From the sequence record MK962753.1: 64,000 bases of DNA; one strand, written 5' to 3'. Shown one piece after another: positions 6,276 to 37,121 of the stretch (positions are counted from its first letter, which is position 1; the number at the start of each line of letters is the position of its first letter). A program made the translations under genes and the position numbers. The DNA comes from Shigella phage JK32. A model generated the notes under the pieces. The model did not search any database, was not told the origin of the DNA, and saw only the letters and a list, made by a program, of their open reading frames with translations.

Positions 6276-6287
6276 TGTATCACCTAT

Positions 6288-6310
6288 GAAAAAGCGGGAT
6301 TTCTCCCGCT
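6288..6310 (-). terminator. Rho-independent terminator
   Basis: Reverse strand agcgggagaaatcccgct followed by TTTTT. Confidence 0.5.
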
Positions 6311-6319
6311 CGTTGATAG

Positions 6320-6814
6320 TTATTTTACCAGTTCTGCTAATTCTTTTTCCGCCGCTTCCAGTTCAGCTTTCAGTTGTTTAATCTCTTGTCGCTTCTTATT
6401 AGCGGCTTCCTGCTTACTATTTCGGATAACCTGATCTAGATATGAATCCCACTCCTGAATATTTTTGATAATGTAACCGTCAACGTTCAGAACTTTAATA
6501 TTAAGAACTTCTTCCAGCTTACTTAAAGAACGTTGTGTTTCGGGGAAGAAATAGTCATATTCACCTCGGTCAAACCAGTAGCGTATGCCAGCTTTATCTA
6601 AACGACGATGCAATTCATCAAAATCTCTACCATCTTCGACGATGAGTTTGTCTACATCGCCATTACAGTTAACAGAGACTTTGAATCTAATATTATCAAC
6701 CCCACCAAAAACATCAATAAGGATAGTTCCTATCGTGTTATCCGCGCTTCCAGTATCCATAAAAGATTCTAGTTTTTCTTGATTAGTAACGTACCAAACA
6801 TCTTGTTTCCACAT
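6320..6814 (-). CDS. Hypothetical protein with coiled-coil tail, grouped with the GKTYxWK family by architecture
   Basis: ORF track; C-terminal KQLKAELEAAEKELAELVK. Confidence 0.55.
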   Translation of the reverse strand: MWKQDVWYVTNQEKLESFMDTGSADNTIGTILIDVFGGVDNIRFKVSVNCNGDVDKLIVEDGRDFDELHRRLDKAGIRYWFDRGEYDYFFPETQRSLSKLEEVLNIKVLNVDGYIIKNIQEWDSYLDQVIRNSKQEAANKKRQEIKQLKAELEAAEKELAELVK

Positions 6815-6844
6815 AATATAATCCTCTCGTTGTTAAGTGGGAGT

Positions 6845-6872
6845 ATTATAGCATACTCCCTTCGCATGTCAA
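6845..6872 (-). promoter_or_regulatory. Sigma70-type early promoter (TTGACA-16-TATAAT)
   Basis: Reverse strand TTGACA tgcgaagggagtatgc TATAAT; hairpin gggagta/tactccc overlaps -10. Confidence 0.6.
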
Positions 6873-8047
6873 GCACTAACTTTTTTCTTTACTGCTTTCA
6901 CCTTCTGGCGAATTGCTCGAATCTCTTCGATCTCTTTTTCAGTCTCTTTAACAATTTCTTTGCGATTCTGAATATCTGTATCGAGATTATCATCAAGTTT
7001 AGGCAGCATGTCAATCAAGAACTTTTTAAAGTCTTTCAGGTTTCTGATAACAGCACCTTCACCCATTACCGCCACCCCTACACCATCCGGCAGATCGCCA
7101 AACAGTTTAACCAGTTCAGACAGATGATCATGATCTTCTAGTGCTTCTTCCGGTTCAGATGGCAGTTCAACAAAGTTATAACGTTCATCATTGCTGATGA
7201 GGTGATACCAGCAAAGCCCGAATGATTTCGGTGTATATTCTACACCATCAATTTCAACCGAGTCAACACTTCCATAATCATCTACTTTAGTTACCTTAAA
7301 TCCTTGTCCCAGCTTTTGAACAATTTCAACAACATGACTTGATACAGTTTCAGCGGTAAACCAATATGGCAAATTATGCTGATTTGGCTTGTAGCGTTCA
7401 CCTACTTTAAATCTCTGACCAGCCGCTTGCATAGCATGAAATTGTTGTTTCGTGATTTCCGCGAAGTATTCAAATTCGCTACCATCAAACACACAAGCCC
7501 ATTGATCACAAAAACGATCTGCCTTGACGGTTTCACCTTTCGCGGTGATCATGGTAGCTGATCCGTGCAATTCTTCTTCAACTAAAAAGCCATATTCGAC
7601 AAAATCGACAAGTTTCATGGCTTCTTTGTGCTCTGGATCATGCTCTCCCCAGAATCGCTTAAATTCTTGCAAACCTTCCGGGGTAAACGAATAACATTTA
7701 CCTTTTTCAAAGTAAGTCGGCATTGCATCCTCTTTCTTGTTCATCGCTTCGTATGCCTCTTTTGAGATGCGTTTAAAGTATTTGCGCTCATTGTGCATAA
7801 TCATAGTAGACCAATAATAAACGATATCCTCAGCGGAATAAACTACATCTCCAGCTTCAATAGTAATAACATGACCGTGGTCATCTTTTTCTAATACTTT
7901 AAAGCCCTTTTCTACGATTTCAGCAACCCGAATATGACCACGGCGCGAAGCATCGGTCAGAATAATTGAATAGCGAGAAAAGTCTAGAAACTCATCTTTA
8001 CCGCCTTCACGGAATGCATAGTAATGACCTTCAAAGAATTTAGCCAT
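6869..8047 (-). CDS. Hypothetical protein with three tandem repeat domains and a coiled-coil tail
   Basis: Repeats FEGHYYAFREGG, FEKGKCYSFTPEG, FKVGERYKPNQ; KYFKRISKEAYEAM motif shared with 8103-8687. Confidence 0.6.
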   Translation of the reverse strand: MAKFFEGHYYAFREGGKDEFLDFSRYSIILTDASRRGHIRVAEIVEKGFKVLEKDDHGHVITIEAGDVVYSAEDIVYYWSTMIMHNERKYFKRISKEAYEAMNKKEDAMPTYFEKGKCYSFTPEGLQEFKRFWGEHDPEHKEAMKLVDFVEYGFLVEEELHGSATMITAKGETVKADRFCDQWACVFDGSEFEYFAEITKQQFHAMQAAGQRFKVGERYKPNQHNLPYWFTAETVSSHVVEIVQKLGQGFKVTKVDDYGSVDSVEIDGVEYTPKSFGLCWYHLISNDERYNFVELPSEPEEALEDHDHLSELVKLFGDLPDGVGVAVMGEGAVIRNLKDFKKFLIDMLPKLDDNLDTDIQNRKEIVKETEKEIEEIRAIRQKVKAVKKKVSA

Positions 8048-8077
8048 AATATAATCCTCTCGTTGTTAAGTGGGAGT

Positions 8078-8106
8078 ATCTTACTACTCCCGTTTCATCA
8101 TGTCAA
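8078..8106 (-). promoter_or_regulatory. Sigma70-type early promoter (TTGACA-17-TAAGAT)
   Basis: Reverse strand TTGACA tgatgaaacgggagtag TAAGAT; hairpin gggagta/tactccc. Confidence 0.5.
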
Positions 8107-8687
8107 GCGTTAAATGACTTTTGGATCTCTTTCAGTTCAGCTACTTTATCGGCGCTGAATTTAGCGTAGGTATCATGTCGAATAATTTCACTTTCAAGAA
8201 AGGTTTCCAGACGAGATCTATTTTCAATAAGGAACTCTTTCAGGTCTTCCGCGTTCTTGATAAAGATTTTATTGTCGGTAATGTCATCTTCAATCGCAAA
8301 GGAGATAGAGCGAACTTTACCAAACAAGTTAATCAGATCTTCCAGAGATTCTTCTTTCTTAACTGGTTTCATTTCTTCAAACTGCTTTTTAGTGATTCGT
8401 TTAAAGTATTTGCGCTCGCTTGCATCAATCATGATTGACGCGCCCTCATAATCATGAGTTTCTACCAAATACACTTTACCCATAACATTAACCGTCAGAA
8501 CTTTAAAGCCCTTGTGAAGCACACCATACAGGAACTTGTTATGTTGTGGATAGCGTTTAACAAATTCCTCTGCGGACTCAGCATTACGGAAAGTGTAATA
8601 ACGACCTCGTTCAAAAACAGCATCATTTGAAGACTTAGCCGGATACAATTTATACGTTTTCTGTACCATAATATAATCCTCTATCAT
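8103..8687 (-). CDS. Hypothetical protein, repeat family
   Basis: KYFKRITKKQFEEM motif; overlaps upstream ORF by 4 nt. Confidence 0.6.
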   Translation of the reverse strand: MIEDYIMVQKTYKLYPAKSSNDAVFERGRYYTFRNAESAEEFVKRYPQHNKFLYGVLHKGFKVLTVNVMGKVYLVETHDYEGASIMIDASERKYFKRITKKQFEEMKPVKKEESLEDLINLFGKVRSISFAIEDDITDNKIFIKNAEDLKEFLIENRSRLETFLESEIIRHDTYAKFSADKVAELKEIQKSFNA

Positions 8688-31954: not shown

Positions 31955-32173
31955 TTATTTATATCGCTTTCTCTCGCGACGTTTTTGATCTTCTTCCTTG
32001 ATAGAGTCAAATGCATCAAAAAGACACATGAGACTGATAATGAACATAACCGTATTTTCTACGATATCCCACGTCTTCGCATCAGTACAGATCCCCCAAA
32101 CGGTAAGAAATGCAAATAGTGCAGAAGAGATCACAAGCATGATACTTGCTAAGATATAAAAAGTCATTTTCAT
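31955..32173 (-). CDS. Small membrane protein
   Basis: Hydrophobic helices. Confidence 0.45.
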   Translation of the reverse strand: MKMTFYILASIMLVISSALFAFLTVWGICTDAKTWDIVENTVMFIISLMCLFDAFDSIKEEDQKRRERKRYK

Positions 32174-32364
32174 GGTTTTACCTCAATTTTTCGATATTCA
32201 TCACACATCCACGCAGTAAGCAAGAATCCCAGCACATAAGCAACAAAATACGTTAATGCTTCTTCTGGTTTCGTGCTATGTATCATCAGTAAACCAGCGA
32301 GAAAGGTCTTAACAATTACATTTAAAATAATTAGCCACGCAAATAATTTCATCGTTTGCCCCAT
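32170..32364 (-). CDS. Small membrane protein
   Basis: Hydrophobic helices; 4-nt overlap coupling. Confidence 0.45.
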   Translation of the reverse strand: MGQTMKLFAWLIILNVIVKTFLAGLLMIHSTKPEEALTYFVAYVLGFLLTAWMCDEYRKIEVKP

Positions 32365-32588
32365 TTCGGTCGAGCCTTTTCAAACTTATACATTCCGTAA
32401 CAATCTCGAATCATCCACGTAACAAGAGCACCAGTCAACACAGACAATACACAGAAGAAGTAAAACGGTCCGGTTGCATTATCAACATGAGCAAGCCATG
32501 TAAAGAAAACACATGCAAGGAACGTGAAGAACATCATAAAGCACAAGAAAGCAAAATATTTTATACTACTCATAGCGCCACCATACAA
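32349..32588 (-). CDS. Small membrane protein
   Basis: Hydrophobic helices. Confidence 0.45.
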   Translation of the reverse strand: MYGGAMSSIKYFAFLCFMMFFTFLACVFFTWLAHVDNATGPFYFFCVLSVLTGALVTWMIRDCYGMYKFEKARPKWGKR

Positions 32589-32676
32589 CAGATCACAAGA
32601 AACCCCAACGCAATAAGAATTTCATCAAATTTAGTGAACTCCGGTCCACCTATCAACATCATTCGTTCCTGTTCAT

Positions 32677-32874
32677 TCATAGATCACAGAGCCATCTGAA
32701 AGCACCACATAAAGCGAGCAGAATACTAGGTATAAACGAGACTAAAACAAGACTACAAAAATCATCTAAGGTAACGCCGGAATAGCTACCTACTGTAACA
32801 ACACCGATTATCAGACACAGAAAGAAAACAAATGCAACCAGAAACAAAGTATTGCTAAACAGTTTAGTGATCAT
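32677..32874 (-). CDS. Small membrane protein (start refined to MITKLF)
   Basis: Track ORF 32677-32919 overlaps its neighbour; internal ATG at 32874 removes the overlap. Confidence 0.4.
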   Translation of the reverse strand: MITKLFSNTLFLVAFVFFLCLIIGVVTVGSYSGVTLDDFCSLVLVSFIPSILLALCGAFRWLCDL

Positions 32875-33067
32875 TAGACACCCCACGACGATCAATTTCA
32901 AAAACTTTTTTATCATCAACGAAGCATGTCACAACTGCCTCGTTGACTTCCGCAAATTGTTGTGTTACCCACTTAAGGTCAGAGCGAAACAATGTTCTAT
33001 TAATAACAAATGTTTTACCGCTCTTATCCTTACCCATAAATTTTGCTTTAACCATATCCAATTCCAT
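32864..33067 (-). CDS. Hypothetical protein
   Basis: ORF track. Confidence 0.45.
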   Translation of the reverse strand: MELDMVKAKFMGKDKSGKTFVINRTLFRSDLKWVTQQFAEVNEAVVTCFVDDKKVFEIDRRGVSNDH

Positions 33068-33068
33068 A

Positions 33069-33235
33069 TTATCACCTTATTTGCTAATCGCTAAACCCAA
33101 TCCGAAGAGAGCACCCGATGCTACAGTATACCCGAAAGTTTCAAAGGCAGTAAAGATATCTAAGCCGCCAGCTAACAGAGTTGCAGTAAACAGAGTACCA
33201 GCTACGAAAATAAAAGTTTTACCGATAAATTTCAT
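33069..33235 (-). CDS. Small membrane protein (about 52 aa), absent from ORF track
   Basis: ATG directly after GGAGAATCAAA leader; translation MKFIGKTFIFVAGTLFTATLLAGG. Confidence 0.35.
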
Positions 33236-33266
33236 TTTGATTCTCCTTTCGTTTGTTTGTGGGGGT

Positions 33267-33295
33267 ATCTTACTACCCCCGTTTCATGTTGTCAA
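33267..33295 (-). promoter_or_regulatory. Sigma70-type early promoter (TTGACA-17-TAAGAT)
   Basis: Reverse strand TTGACA acatgaaacgggggtag TAAGAT; hairpin gggggta/taccccc. Confidence 0.5.
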
Positions 33296-33301
33296 CTATT
33301 T

Positions 33302-33680
33302 TTAAGAATATTTTACTTCGTCTACAATGTCTTTCATGACATTGATTTCCATTCCGGTCAGAACACGTTGGAACATGTGCTGCACATACGCTTTCAGGTA
33401 TTCATTTGATGGCTTACTATCGAAAGTCTTTTTAGTGTAGTAGTCATCACCGAAAGCTACTGTAATTACATTTTCGTCGTCGTTCCAAGCGATATAAGCA
33501 AATTTGCCGTTATCCCAGAAGCGAGCACTAATTGCTACTTTTGTTGAATCGAATCCTACTTCGCTGTGAGATTCAAGAACTACTTGTGTGCCAGTTTCTT
33601 TATGAATGTAGTAGCGGGATACTAAGTCAAAGTTACGGGTGTAGTGACATTCGAATTTATCTTTAAACATCATCATTTTG
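33302..33680 (-). CDS. Hypothetical protein (start at MMMFKDKF after conserved leader)
   Basis: Track ORF 33302-33745 trimmed to ATG following GGAGAATCAAA. Confidence 0.5.
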
Positions 33681-33713
33681 ATTCTCCTAAGTGTGTTTCG
33701 TTTCGATATGTGC

Positions 33714-33742
33714 ATTATGCTATAGTCGTTTATGGTTGTCAA
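33714..33742 (-). promoter_or_regulatory. Sigma70-type early promoter (TTGACA-17-CATAAT)
   Basis: Reverse strand TTGACA accataaacgactatag CATAAT. Confidence 0.6.
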
Positions 33743-33753
33743 CACCTAAAAAC

Positions 33754-33780
33754 AAAAAAACCCCGAAAAATTTTCGGGGT
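33754..33780 (-). terminator. Rho-independent terminator after 57B
   Basis: Reverse strand hairpin ccccgaaaatttttcgggg followed by T7. Confidence 0.65.
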
Positions 33781-33786
33781 ATAAAA

Positions 33787-34257
33787 TTACAGTTTGGTCG
33801 TCCACTCCAGGTCTAGATCTTCGACATACTCATGAGATCGGACAATCTCTAAATCGAACTCTAGGTCAGTGCCAAATTTACGCGCACCAACATCATAAGA
33901 AAGCGTGATATGCGGTACATATTCAGGATAATCCCACGTCGCACCTAAAGCAGTTCCGATATCGTGTCTGAATTGCATGTAGTCGCTTTCAAATGCCAGC
34001 ACAAGCGCATTAGTACCGGATTGAGTTTCAAACACTTTCAGATGGCATAGAGAGCCTAAAAACTTTTCACCCTCTTCTGGGATAAACGGAACATAGACAC
34101 GAGAATATAAGATAGTGCTATGCAGTTTATCACGAGGAACGGCATTAGGCAGATCGTAGAACTCCTGCAATTTTTCAATGCGGTCTAGTGTATCCTCAGT
34201 GAATTTAACAGCCGCATATGTACCTTTAACGGATTCTCGAAACGGGGTCATAATCAA
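33787..34257 (-). CDS. 57B: 2H-phosphoesterase-like protein at the gene 57B position (Acb1-like anti-CBASS candidate)
   Basis: Two H-x-T/S-x motifs (LHSTIL, PHITLSY); position immediately before 57A-1-3-2-4 as in T4. Confidence 0.6.
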   Translation of the reverse strand: MIMTPFRESVKGTYAAVKFTEDTLDRIEKLQEFYDLPNAVPRDKLHSTILYSRVYVPFIPEEGEKFLGSLCHLKVFETQSGTNALVLAFESDYMQFRHDIGTALGATWDYPEYVPHITLSYDVGARKFGTDLEFDLEIVRSHEYVEDLDLEWTTKL

Positions 34258-34520
34258 GCCTCCGTGATCAGTTCTACTTCCTCTTTATCGTCTTCCACTG
34301 CTTCGTCTTTAGGGAGAAGTGCTTTTACTTCTTCGACAATAGCATCAAGGGAAACAGTGCCGTTTTCGTCTGGCTGAATACCCAGAATGCGTACCAGTTC
34401 CATCAATACACGCTCACGATCTTTCAGTTGGCCTTCTAAGAATGCGGCCTTTTCTTGAGTGTCAAACAGACGTACTTTCAGGACATTAATCATTTGTTCA
34501 TGCTGATTGGACATATTCAC
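34254..34520 (-). CDS. 57A: Tail fibre assembly chaperone gp57A
   Basis: 88 aa acidic coiled-coil protein; position before gene 1. Confidence 0.65.
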   Translation of the reverse strand: MNMSNQHEQMINVLKVRLFDTQEKAAFLEGQLKDRERVLMELVRILGIQPDENGTVSLDAIVEEVKALLPKDEAVEDDKEEVELITEA

Positions 34521-34546
34521 ATCTCCTACTTGTTGATAACTTTTTA

Positions 34547-35203
34547 TTAAATGTTCGCGAGAATCGCGCTTTCAAATTCTTCTAATGTACCATTATTTAT
34601 GATAATGGTTTCACCGTCAATAGGCAAAATTCCTTTTTCGGTGGAGTGAGTCGATACAATACCAGTATCACGCTGAATATGCAACACCTTAGCACCCATA
34701 GCACGCACGAGAGCAATTTCAATAGGCTGACGCACATCAACCACTACAAAATAACCTTCTTCATTTTTGCGCTTCATAAACTCATTCACGAAGAGATTAC
34801 ACCAATAAAGCGGATTGATCAAGTTAACCATTATATCAGTACCGAGAGTGGTTAACATGAGACGAATAGACCAGACGTTATTATGTTTTTCGCCGATCTC
34901 ATTAACAACCTTGTAAATCTCAGCCAGACGATCACAAGTAAAGGAACTACCGCCATACTTCGAATCTAGCATAAGCAGACACTGAATAAACCACTTATGC
35001 GCGGTATAGGTATCAATACCTAGATCGGCTTCTCTGTCACGCCCTAACCCGTCAAAGTCAAGATAAGTCAGACCTAAGTCTGGTTGACATTCGCACAATA
35101 TTTCTTTGATCGGTGCTGCCAGTTGATAACTATGTCCATCAATGATTAACGCGGCAGTGTCTTTTCCTACTCGCTTTTTACCACAAAGTGCAATCAATTT
35201 CAT
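34547..35203 (-). CDS. 1: Deoxynucleoside monophosphate kinase
   Basis: P-loop CGKKRVGKDT; collinear with recalled T4 gp1; synteny. Confidence 0.85.
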   Translation of the reverse strand: MKLIALCGKKRVGKDTAALIIDGHSYQLAAPIKEILCECQPDLGLTYLDFDGLGRDREADLGIDTYTAHKWFIQCLLMLDSKYGGSSFTCDRLAEIYKVVNEIGEKHNNVWSIRLMLTTLGTDIMVNLINPLYWCNLFVNEFMKRKNEEGYFVVVDVRQPIEIALVRAMGAKVLHIQRDTGIVSTHSTEKGILPIDGETIIINNGTLEEFESAILANI

Positions 35204-35218
35204 TATATAAGCCTCTTA

Positions 35219-35809
35219 TTACTTTCTAAAAGCAGGGTGCATAGCTTTAATACCTTCCACTCGCTGACGATCCGCCGCCTGAATTGCAGGGCGAGGAACG
35301 ATCAGTTGACCATCACGTTCAATGCTCATTGTTTTAAATGGAAGAATTGCAGTACATACCAGAGATTCATGCATATCATCGGTGTATGTTAACTCAAGTT
35401 CCCCCAATTGTGAACACCAACAACCATAAAAGTTAAAGGTGCATACAATATTGCGGCGTTCATTGTCCATCATGTGAACTTGAACGGCTTCCGGCATTGA
35501 ATCCTTCCACGCAGTGGAGTTACCGTTATTGTAGTCTACTATAGAAAGCATCCATGTGTAAAGGTTTAGATAGCTTTCCAAATGCTCATCAACGATAAAC
35601 CGGACTACCAACGGGTCAAACTCTACATGACTAGACGGATAATCAGCAACCGCCAAACCATATTGACCAGCAACTTGCTTAGTCGGTGGAATGGTTATAG
35701 CCGGAAGTGTAACACCTTGACAGTTTAAAGTAAAGCCTTTTGTTAGTTGACCATCTGGAATGGCAATCTGCCAGTTGCTAGGGTTAGCATAGTTAAAGAG
35801 ATTAGACAT
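35219..35809 (-). CDS. 3: Tail completion / sheath stabiliser protein gp3 (by synteny)
   Basis: Located between gene 1 and gene 2 as in T4; 196 aa. Confidence 0.65.
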   Translation of the reverse strand: MSNLFNYANPSNWQIAIPDGQLTKGFTLNCQGVTLPAITIPPTKQVAGQYGLAVADYPSSHVEFDPLVVRFIVDEHLESYLNLYTWMLSIVDYNNGNSTAWKDSMPEAVQVHMMDNERRNIVCTFNFYGCWCSQLGELELTYTDDMHESLVCTAILPFKTMSIERDGQLIVPRPAIQAADRQRVEGIKAMHPAFRK

Positions 35810-35999
35810 TACTGATTCCTCAAATGAAAATATTTATTAACAATTGTCGCTTTGCGACGTGCCGGAGGCACTGACTACTTTTTAACCGAAACAAATTTTT
35901 TATTATTCTAAAGATCTTTCTTCGTTTTGGTTATGTTTTAACCAATAACTATATTTTTATACAGTAATAAATAAAACGGGTACTATACGAGGACTTCTT

Positions 36000-36254
36000 A
36001 TGACAGAAGACATTTTGTTAAAACTCTATGATCGTTTGGATAACGAATTAGCAACATTGCGGGGTGAAGTTCTCTATTTGTCTAAATGCAATACAGATCT
36101 GCTTAAGCAGATTGCAGAAAGGGATGATCAAATAAAATCCCTTTCTGGTGCATTACGTGATCGCGACAAGGCATTAGAGATTTTACAGCGTGTTACCAAT
36201 AAGGAAGAATTAAAAGACTTCTTACATGGTTATGCTCATGCTATCGATCTATAA
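36000..36254 (+). CDS. Hypothetical coiled-coil protein inserted between genes 3 and 2
   Basis: ATG preceded by GAGGA; 84 aa alpha-helical; opposite strand to neighbours. Confidence 0.45.
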   Translation: MTEDILLKLYDRLDNELATLRGEVLYLSKCNTDLLKQIAERDDQIKSLSGALRDRDKALEILQRVTNKEELKDFLHGYAHAIDL

Positions 36255-36255
36255 T

Positions 36256-36283
36256 AAAAAAGCCCGTCATTGACGGGCTTAAT
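36256..36283. terminator. Bidirectional hairpin terminator between convergent genes
   Basis: aaaaaagcccgtcattgacgggctt. Confidence 0.55.
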
Positions 36284-36293
36284 TGTATGTAGT

Positions 36294-37121
36294 TTAAAAC
36301 AGTTTCCAGACTTTTCGAGCGTCGTATTTCTTGCCTTTTGACATAAACTGATAAACGGGCATCATTATGATATTGTGCCAGTCCTTCGGGGCGATCTCGA
36401 TCATCTTGGTTTGGATGTGTCCTGGTAAGTATGCTTTAATCATGTGGTCGCTTCCACGCATACCTTTTACATCGCTCCATTTGATTTTTAAGCGCGTTTT
36501 ATTGCTTAGGGTAGGTGTAGTAGCATATTGCTTTAAAAGTGCCTCTAAGAACTGTTGACGAGCTTTAGGTGGGGCATAGTGCAAGTTCAAGCCTAGCATA
36601 ATCGTATTACCCGCTTTACTCTTCCCTTCCCCTAGACAGATAATCAAAGGAAATCGATCGTAGAAAGGCAAAGAATCCTTATATTTTGGGTCATATGCAT
36701 AGGTATAGATCCGACCTACTTGTGGTTTTACTACCTGATGGCCTTTTACTCCCGCCTTAATAGTCTTCATAAACCATTCTTGCGATTTCTCTTTAGGCCG
36801 ACTCACTTTAGCCGTTTTGGTAAGAGACGCACGAAAATCATTAATAAGCATCATTGCTCGTTGTTGCTTGTTTAATCCTTTTGGGCTTTTACCCTTTAAC
36901 CGTGCAATCTCAATTGCTTGTTTAATCTCTCCTGAATAACGAGACATACTCTTAGTGAATGTTGTATAGGGTATTCCTTTTTCTTGAGCAAAGGCTTTAG
37001 CTGTCATGCCTTTGGCTTTTGCTTTAGAGAACTCTACGCCCAGATCAATCCACTGTTTAGCCTTTCTTTGTTGTGGCGTTTGCTTAACGTCTTCTTCTGT
37101 GATTATTTCAAATACGCTCAT
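36294..37121 (-). CDS. 2: DNA end protector protein gp2
   Basis: 275 aa vs T4 gp2 274 aa; synteny. Confidence 0.8.
   Translation of the reverse strand: MSVFEIITEEDVKQTPQQRKAKQWIDLGVEFSKAKAKGMTAKAFAQEKGIPYTTFTKSMSRYSGEIKQAIEIARLKGKSPKGLNKQQRAMMLINDFRASLTKTAKVSRPKEKSQEWFMKTIKAGVKGHQVVKPQVGRIYTYAYDPKYKDSLPFYDRFPLIICLGEGKSKAGNTIMLGLNLHYAPPKARQQFLEALLKQYATTPTLSNKTRLKIKWSDVKGMRGSDHMIKAYLPGHIQTKMIEIAPKDWHNIIMMPVYQFMSKGKKYDARKVWKLF

Follow-up and report, generated by a model that had tools for sequence, protein, structure and literature searches.

A Krischvirus gene at the T4 57B position very probably encodes the anti-CBASS protein Acb1

Organization of the gene 57B locus

We use the term window for the whole 64,000-nucleotide stretch of DNA that was analysed. 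On its minus strand, at 33787..34251, lies the coding sequence of gene 57B, here called acb1, which on the basis of its open reading frame and of homology comprises 154 codons and a TAA stop (33789-33787). The original prediction had delimited a minus-strand reading frame at 33787..34257; such a frame exists, and mechanical translation from the TTG at 34257, which as read directly from the sequence shares bases with the TGA that ends the upstream gene 57A, gives 156 aa. The stop end of that frame stands, but the start is likely to be the ATG at 34251, two codons further in; since this ATG is the start annotated in both Escherichia phage JSE and vB_EcoM_G2494, the product most likely has 154 aa. 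A Shine–Dalgarno sequence, GGAGG, can be read at 34259..34263 (minus strand), 7 nt upstream of the ATG. Because it falls inside the 3′ end of 57A, whose TGA stop occupies 34256-34254, translation of acb1 is probably coupled to that of 57A.

Immediately upstream is 57A itself, the tail-fibre chaperone gene (34254..34520, minus strand; phrog_1002, E=3.3e-26, with a Pfam GP57 match of 26.7 bits, just below the cut-off), preceded by gene 1, which encodes a dNMP kinase (34547..35203, minus strand; Pfam PF21448, E=9.6e-68), and gene 3, for the tail tube terminator or sheath stabiliser (35219..35809, minus strand; assigned through phrog_45, Pfam PF06841 and the JSE annotation). The order 3-1-57A-57B is that of T4, and the earlier placement of the reading frame at the 57B position was therefore correct. 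The same synteny is found in T4, JSE, Mokit, AsFcp_4, K571, 05F and MP1; beyond T4 and JSE, it thus extends to five further genera of the Straboviridae, represented by Hadassahvirus, Angelvirus, Slopekvirus and Gualtarvirus phages as well as a Vibrio T4-like phage.

An intrinsic terminator-like hairpin, ACCCCGAAAATTTTTCGGGGT followed by TTTTTTT, occupies 33750..33780 on the minus strand, beginning 7 nt past the acb1 stop with a G+C-rich stem at 33780-33760; a terminator is annotated at the same place in vB_EcoM_G2494. Directly after it stands a strong sigma-70-like promoter (33742-33714, minus strand; 11/12 matches), and this succession of terminator and promoter implies that acb1 closes the 3-1-57A-57B transcription unit. 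Within 33000-37000 on the coding strand, neither an exact T4-type late promoter (TATAAATA) nor an exact MotA middle promoter was found upstream of 57B, 57A, 1 or 3.

Downstream of acb1 follow a 125-aa ORF, a 52-aa ORF and then dmd. The 125-aa ORF (33302-33679, minus strand), for which the promoter at 33742-33714 serves as its own, sits where T4 has ipI; it matches phrog_15253 (E=1.9e-87) and gives a weak, sub-threshold Pfam match to T4 Gp30.7. Some 0.7 kb downstream of acb1 comes dmd (32864-33067, minus strand; PF17587, E=7.6e-16), whose product in T4 is the antitoxin that counters the RnlA and LsoA toxins, so that two counter-defence genes stand close together. Five head-to-tail small ORFs of 36-80 aa span 31955-32919 on the minus strand; their products, annotated in JSE as hypothetical proteins, are very hydrophobic, have no Pfam match and may be small membrane proteins.

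At the other end of the neighbourhood, gene 2 (DNA end protector; 36294-37121, minus strand) is full length, with a product of 275 aa that is 55% identical to T4 gp2. This product is only 84% identical to JSE gp2, as against roughly 98-100% for the neighbouring genes. In the JSE region used for the comparison (JSE locus 6285-8230), an extra 1143-nt 'endonuclease' CDS that is absent from the window lies beside gene 2, and the annotation makes JSE gp2 shorter by 27 aa; from these sequence differences, the region seems to hold a homing-endonuclease presence/absence polymorphism whose flanks have diverged. Between gene 2 and a convergent 84-aa ORF (36000-36254, plus strand), a perfect 9-bp G+C-rich hairpin, AAGCCCGTCA-T-TGACGGGCTT, occupies 36260-36280. 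Since a T run follows it on the minus strand only, the hairpin is likely the terminator of gene 2, and it possibly serves both genes.

Phage relatives and sequence constraint

In nucleotide sequence, the 3 kb around acb1 share 98.5% identity with Escherichia phage JSE. This region is matched at 95-99% by 58 phage records, including RB49 and records classified as Krischvirus; a 24-kb query returns the same group of phages at about 96%. Judged by this similarity, the window is DNA of a Krischvirus, that is, of an RB49/JSE-type T4-like coliphage. At the protein level, the product of acb1 is 100% identical to JSE gp57B (YP_002922201.1) and 153/154 (99.4%) identical to the vB_EcoM_G2494 protein QBO63089.1, and a protein at least 99% identical to it is encoded in 55 phage records. 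The nucleotide differences from JSE and G2494 fall mostly in synonymous codons (9 nt, as against 1 nt in a non-synonymous codon), a pattern that indicates purifying selection and would mark acb1 as a functional coding gene.

Family identity of the encoded protein

The product of acb1 contains exactly two H-x-[ST] motifs, KLHSTIL (H44-S-T46) and VPHITLS (H114-I-T116). Their core codons, H44-S45-T46 and H114-I115-T116, lie on the minus strand at 34114..34122 and 33904..33912; the first aligns with H44/T46 of both T4 and Erwinia phage FBB1 Acb1, and the second with T4 H113/T115. The original prediction had pointed to these motifs (as LHSTIL and PHITLSY) and to a spacing typical of 2H phosphoesterases, and both observations hold, the distance from H44 to H114 being 70 residues versus 69 in T4 Acb1 (H44/H113). 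The window has 109 stop-to-stop segments that reach 100 aa or more, and just 1 of them, the acb1 ORF, contains an H-x-[ST] pair spaced 55-90 aa apart. In shuffles of the protein the loose motif pair appears in 3.9%, and a strict [LIVMFP]HxT[LIVMF] pair in 0.03%; as a sequence signal taken alone, the motif pair would carry modest weight.

The protein matches the Pfam family PF23474, "Anti-CBASS protein Acb1" (E=1.5e-51; 174.4 bits versus a gathering score of 27), and in this match protein residues 9-152 cover profile positions 1-143 of 144. Among all PDB chains, the sole significant match is to the FBB1 Acb1 structures 7T26 and 7T27 (7T26, E=1.8e-43, residues 10-153), at about 54% identity over 142 aligned residues. 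BLASTP aligns the protein along its entire length with T4 gp57B (NP_049750.1), which is Acb1, at 47% identity (E=3e-47). No NCBIfam model matches the protein.

To compare individual residues, we rely on the structural and biochemical description of T4 Acb1 (Hobbs et al., Nature 2022, PMC9117128). In that protein, the catalytic HxT/HxT tetrad consists of H44, T46, H113 and T115; Y12, W74, F107 and W147 stack on the bases of the ligand, E141 contacts adenine N6, and residues 145-152 form a C-terminal lid (PMC9117128). In our alignment, H44, T46, H114 and T116 of the window protein share columns with the T4 tetrad and with the corresponding residues of the FBB1 crystal structure, while Y12, F74, Y108, W150 and E144 occupy the columns of T4 Y12, W74, F107, W147 and E141, and the lid segment aligns with the Acb1 lid. 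Every catalytic or ligand-contact residue named by Hobbs et al. is thus either kept or conservatively replaced. Across nine homologues, Y12, H44, T46, H114, T116 and E144 are invariant down to 26% identity; this alignment took in T4, FBB1, Acinetobacter phage Mokit, Morganella phage MP1, Aeromonas phage AsFcp_4, Vibrio phage K571, Klebsiella phage 05F and a domain of Pseudomonas phage psageK9.

Taken together, these matches make it very probable that the ORF encodes Acb1, as the orthologue in Krischvirus of T4 gene 57B. The Acb1-like reading of the original prediction is borne out: the catalytic histidines, whose alignment with T4 Acb1 had been proposed as a check, do align, PF23474 is matched at 174 bits against a cut-off of 27, and Acb1 is the only significant match in the PDB. 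Its wording, "2H-phosphoesterase-like", was too weak for what is very probably a full-length Acb1 orthologue. A single-sequence AlphaFold2 model of the protein was of low confidence (mean pLDDT 37.5, pTM 0.36) and was set aside; from the roughly 54% identity to the crystal structure 7T26_A, the protein very likely folds as a compact 2H phosphoesterase that has a C-terminal lid.

Predicted activity and its published basis

In the bacterial CBASS defence, cyclic nucleotides serve as the alarm, and Acb1 is a previously described phage enzyme that degrades them. Acb1 proteins from T4, FBB1 and nine further homologues cleave 3'3'-cGAMP, cUA, cAAA and cAAG, 3' of adenosine and independently of metal (PMC9117128). 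All nine of the additional homologues cloned by Hobbs et al. cleaved both 3'3'-cGAMP and cAAA, and experiments identified the T4 orthologue as what degrades cGAMP in infected cells (PMC9117128). Deletion of acb1 from T4 causes a plating defect of more than 300-fold on CBASS-carrying hosts and carries no cost where CBASS is absent (PMC9117128). The 57 phages of the lysate screen in that study included vB_EcoM-G2494, listed as RB49-like (PMC9117128).

From close homology to these assayed enzymes, we infer the enzyme activity, the substrate range and the in vivo effect of the window protein. It would be a small metal-independent 2H phosphoesterase in which Y12, F74, Y108 and W150 stack on the bases of the ligand, E144 reads adenine N6, and the C-terminal lid closes over the bound molecule. 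The H44/T46/H114/T116 tetrad would then cut the 3'-5' bond 3' of adenosine via a 2',3'-cyclic phosphate intermediate, leaving a linear product that should no longer activate CBASS effectors. With the signal linearised and the effectors not activated, the infected cell would be spared suicide and the phage could complete its cycle.

Substrate range and alternative readings

The substrate range of Krischvirus Acb1 might differ from that of T4, for example through improved cleavage of 3'2'-cGAMP or of signals on which T4 Acb1 performs poorly, by way of F74, Y108 and an insertion ahead of the lid (E131-F132), and Acb1 might perhaps be the only anti-CBASS factor of the phage; we regard this proposal as unlikely, although the two inserted residues could shift specificity. 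The suggestion of a sole factor comes from a tblastn search with T4 Acb2 (vs.4), which detected no homologue in the 64-kb window (best E=0.23), a part of the genome that covers the region syntenic to T4 rI-tk-vs-57B. Krischvirus may be without this sponge, or its sponge may be too divergent for tblastn; Acb2 being short and divergent and the window being part of the genome, the null result is weak evidence.

A stronger departure would be an Acb1-fold enzyme whose main target is another signal, either the cyclic tri-adenylate of type III CRISPR/CARF systems or a different adenosine-containing messenger, with preference shifted by the lid-proximal insertion. Acb1 recognises its ligands largely without regard to which bases they carry, and its substrates include cAAA (PMC9117128), which together with the insertion at residues 131-132 makes such a shift conceivable. 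However, all residues that contact 3'3'-cGAMP are kept, and the closest structural relative, FBB1 Acb1, was crystallised with precisely that ligand. We consider this reading very improbable, and it would in any case extend the role of Acb1 and offer no alternative to it.

The label 'RNA ligase', which RefSeq gives to gene 57B of both JSE and T4 and which is also the name of phrog_755, would suggest instead a generic LigT-type 2'-5' RNA ligase or 2',3'-cyclic phosphodiesterase active at RNA termini, such as those handled in tRNA repair. The 2H fold is indeed common to both families, and the protein gives weak Pfam matches to PF13563 2_5_RNA_ligase2 (E=0.0011) and PF02834 LigT_PEase (E=0.057); these nevertheless fall below the curated cut-offs (19.4 versus 27 bits and 14.1 versus 23.3 bits, respectively), as against the 174 bits of the Acb1 profile. 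The residues specific to the ligand, among them the Glu that contacts adenine N6 and the aromatics that stack on the bases, are kept, and the T4 orthologue is a proven cGAMP degrader that is dispensable without CBASS (PMC9117128). We accordingly hold a LigT-type function to be extremely improbable and reject the 'RNA ligase' identity, the label reflecting only the common 2H superfamily.

That acb1 is an inactive remnant, or encodes a structural or virion protein merely keeping the 57B position, is next to inconceivable in view of its intact frame with ribosome-binding site and terminator, its invariant catalytic tetrad, the purifying selection seen against close relatives, and the 55 records in which the protein recurs almost unchanged.

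Significance for annotation

The Acb1 family has already been published, together with its mechanism, structure and genomic position, and the window gene is an ordinary copy that adds nothing new on mechanism. RefSeq already contains the identical protein, JSE gp57B, misleadingly named "RNA ligase", and current Pfam names Acb1 directly. We found no paper that names Acb1 in connection with Krischvirus or RB49, so that the only gain, a small one, is a corrected annotation for this group of phages, in which the common labels 'RNA ligase' and 'hypothetical protein' for gene 57B are out of date. Awareness that RB49/JSE-type coliphages carry an Acb1 counter-defence helps in predicting the range of CBASS-positive E. 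coli hosts open to them, for instance in the selection of therapeutic phages.

Comparison with known systems

T4 Acb1 (gp57B) occupies the same 3-1-57A-57B position, has 152 aa where the window protein has 154, and is 47% identical to it from end to end. The two proteins agree in the HxT/HxT tetrad, in Y12, in the Glu that contacts adenine and in the Trp of the lid. Two stacking positions differ while remaining aromatic (T4 W74 is F74 in the window protein, and T4 F107 is Y108), and relative to T4 the window protein has an additional residue following position 80. It is set apart from T4 and FBB1 alike by the two-residue insertion E131-F132, which falls in the stretch preceding the C-terminal lid. 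The downstream neighbour differs as well: where T4 has ipI, the window has the terminator, the promoter, the 125-aa and 52-aa ORFs, and dmd.

FBB1 Acb1 (7T26, apo; 7T27, with 3'3'-cGAMP) is the closest solved structure; F74, Y108 and all catalytic residues are common to it and the window protein, although FBB1 infects another host genus, Erwinia. The gp57B proteins of the Krischvirus phages JSE and G2494, encoded at the same locus, show essentially no difference from the window protein, and in databases they appear as 'RNA ligase', 'gp57B conserved hypothetical protein' or 'hypothetical protein', not as Acb1.

Two of the homologues have architectures that are unusual for Acb1. In psageK9, the Acb1-like domain (2372-2851), with the full HxT/HxT tetrad, forms the C-terminal part of a 600-aa protein whose gene directly follows the terminase gene; the Slopekvirus homologue, from Klebsiella phage 05F (2459-3079), carries a C-terminal extension of about 55 aa.

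With the LigT and 2'-5' RNA ligase 2H phosphoesterases (PF13563, PF02834), finally, the window protein has in common the two H-x-T/S motifs on a 2H fold. Unlike those enzymes, Acb1 has a ligand pocket of its own and a C-terminal lid, and its substrates are cyclic oligonucleotides (PMC9117128).
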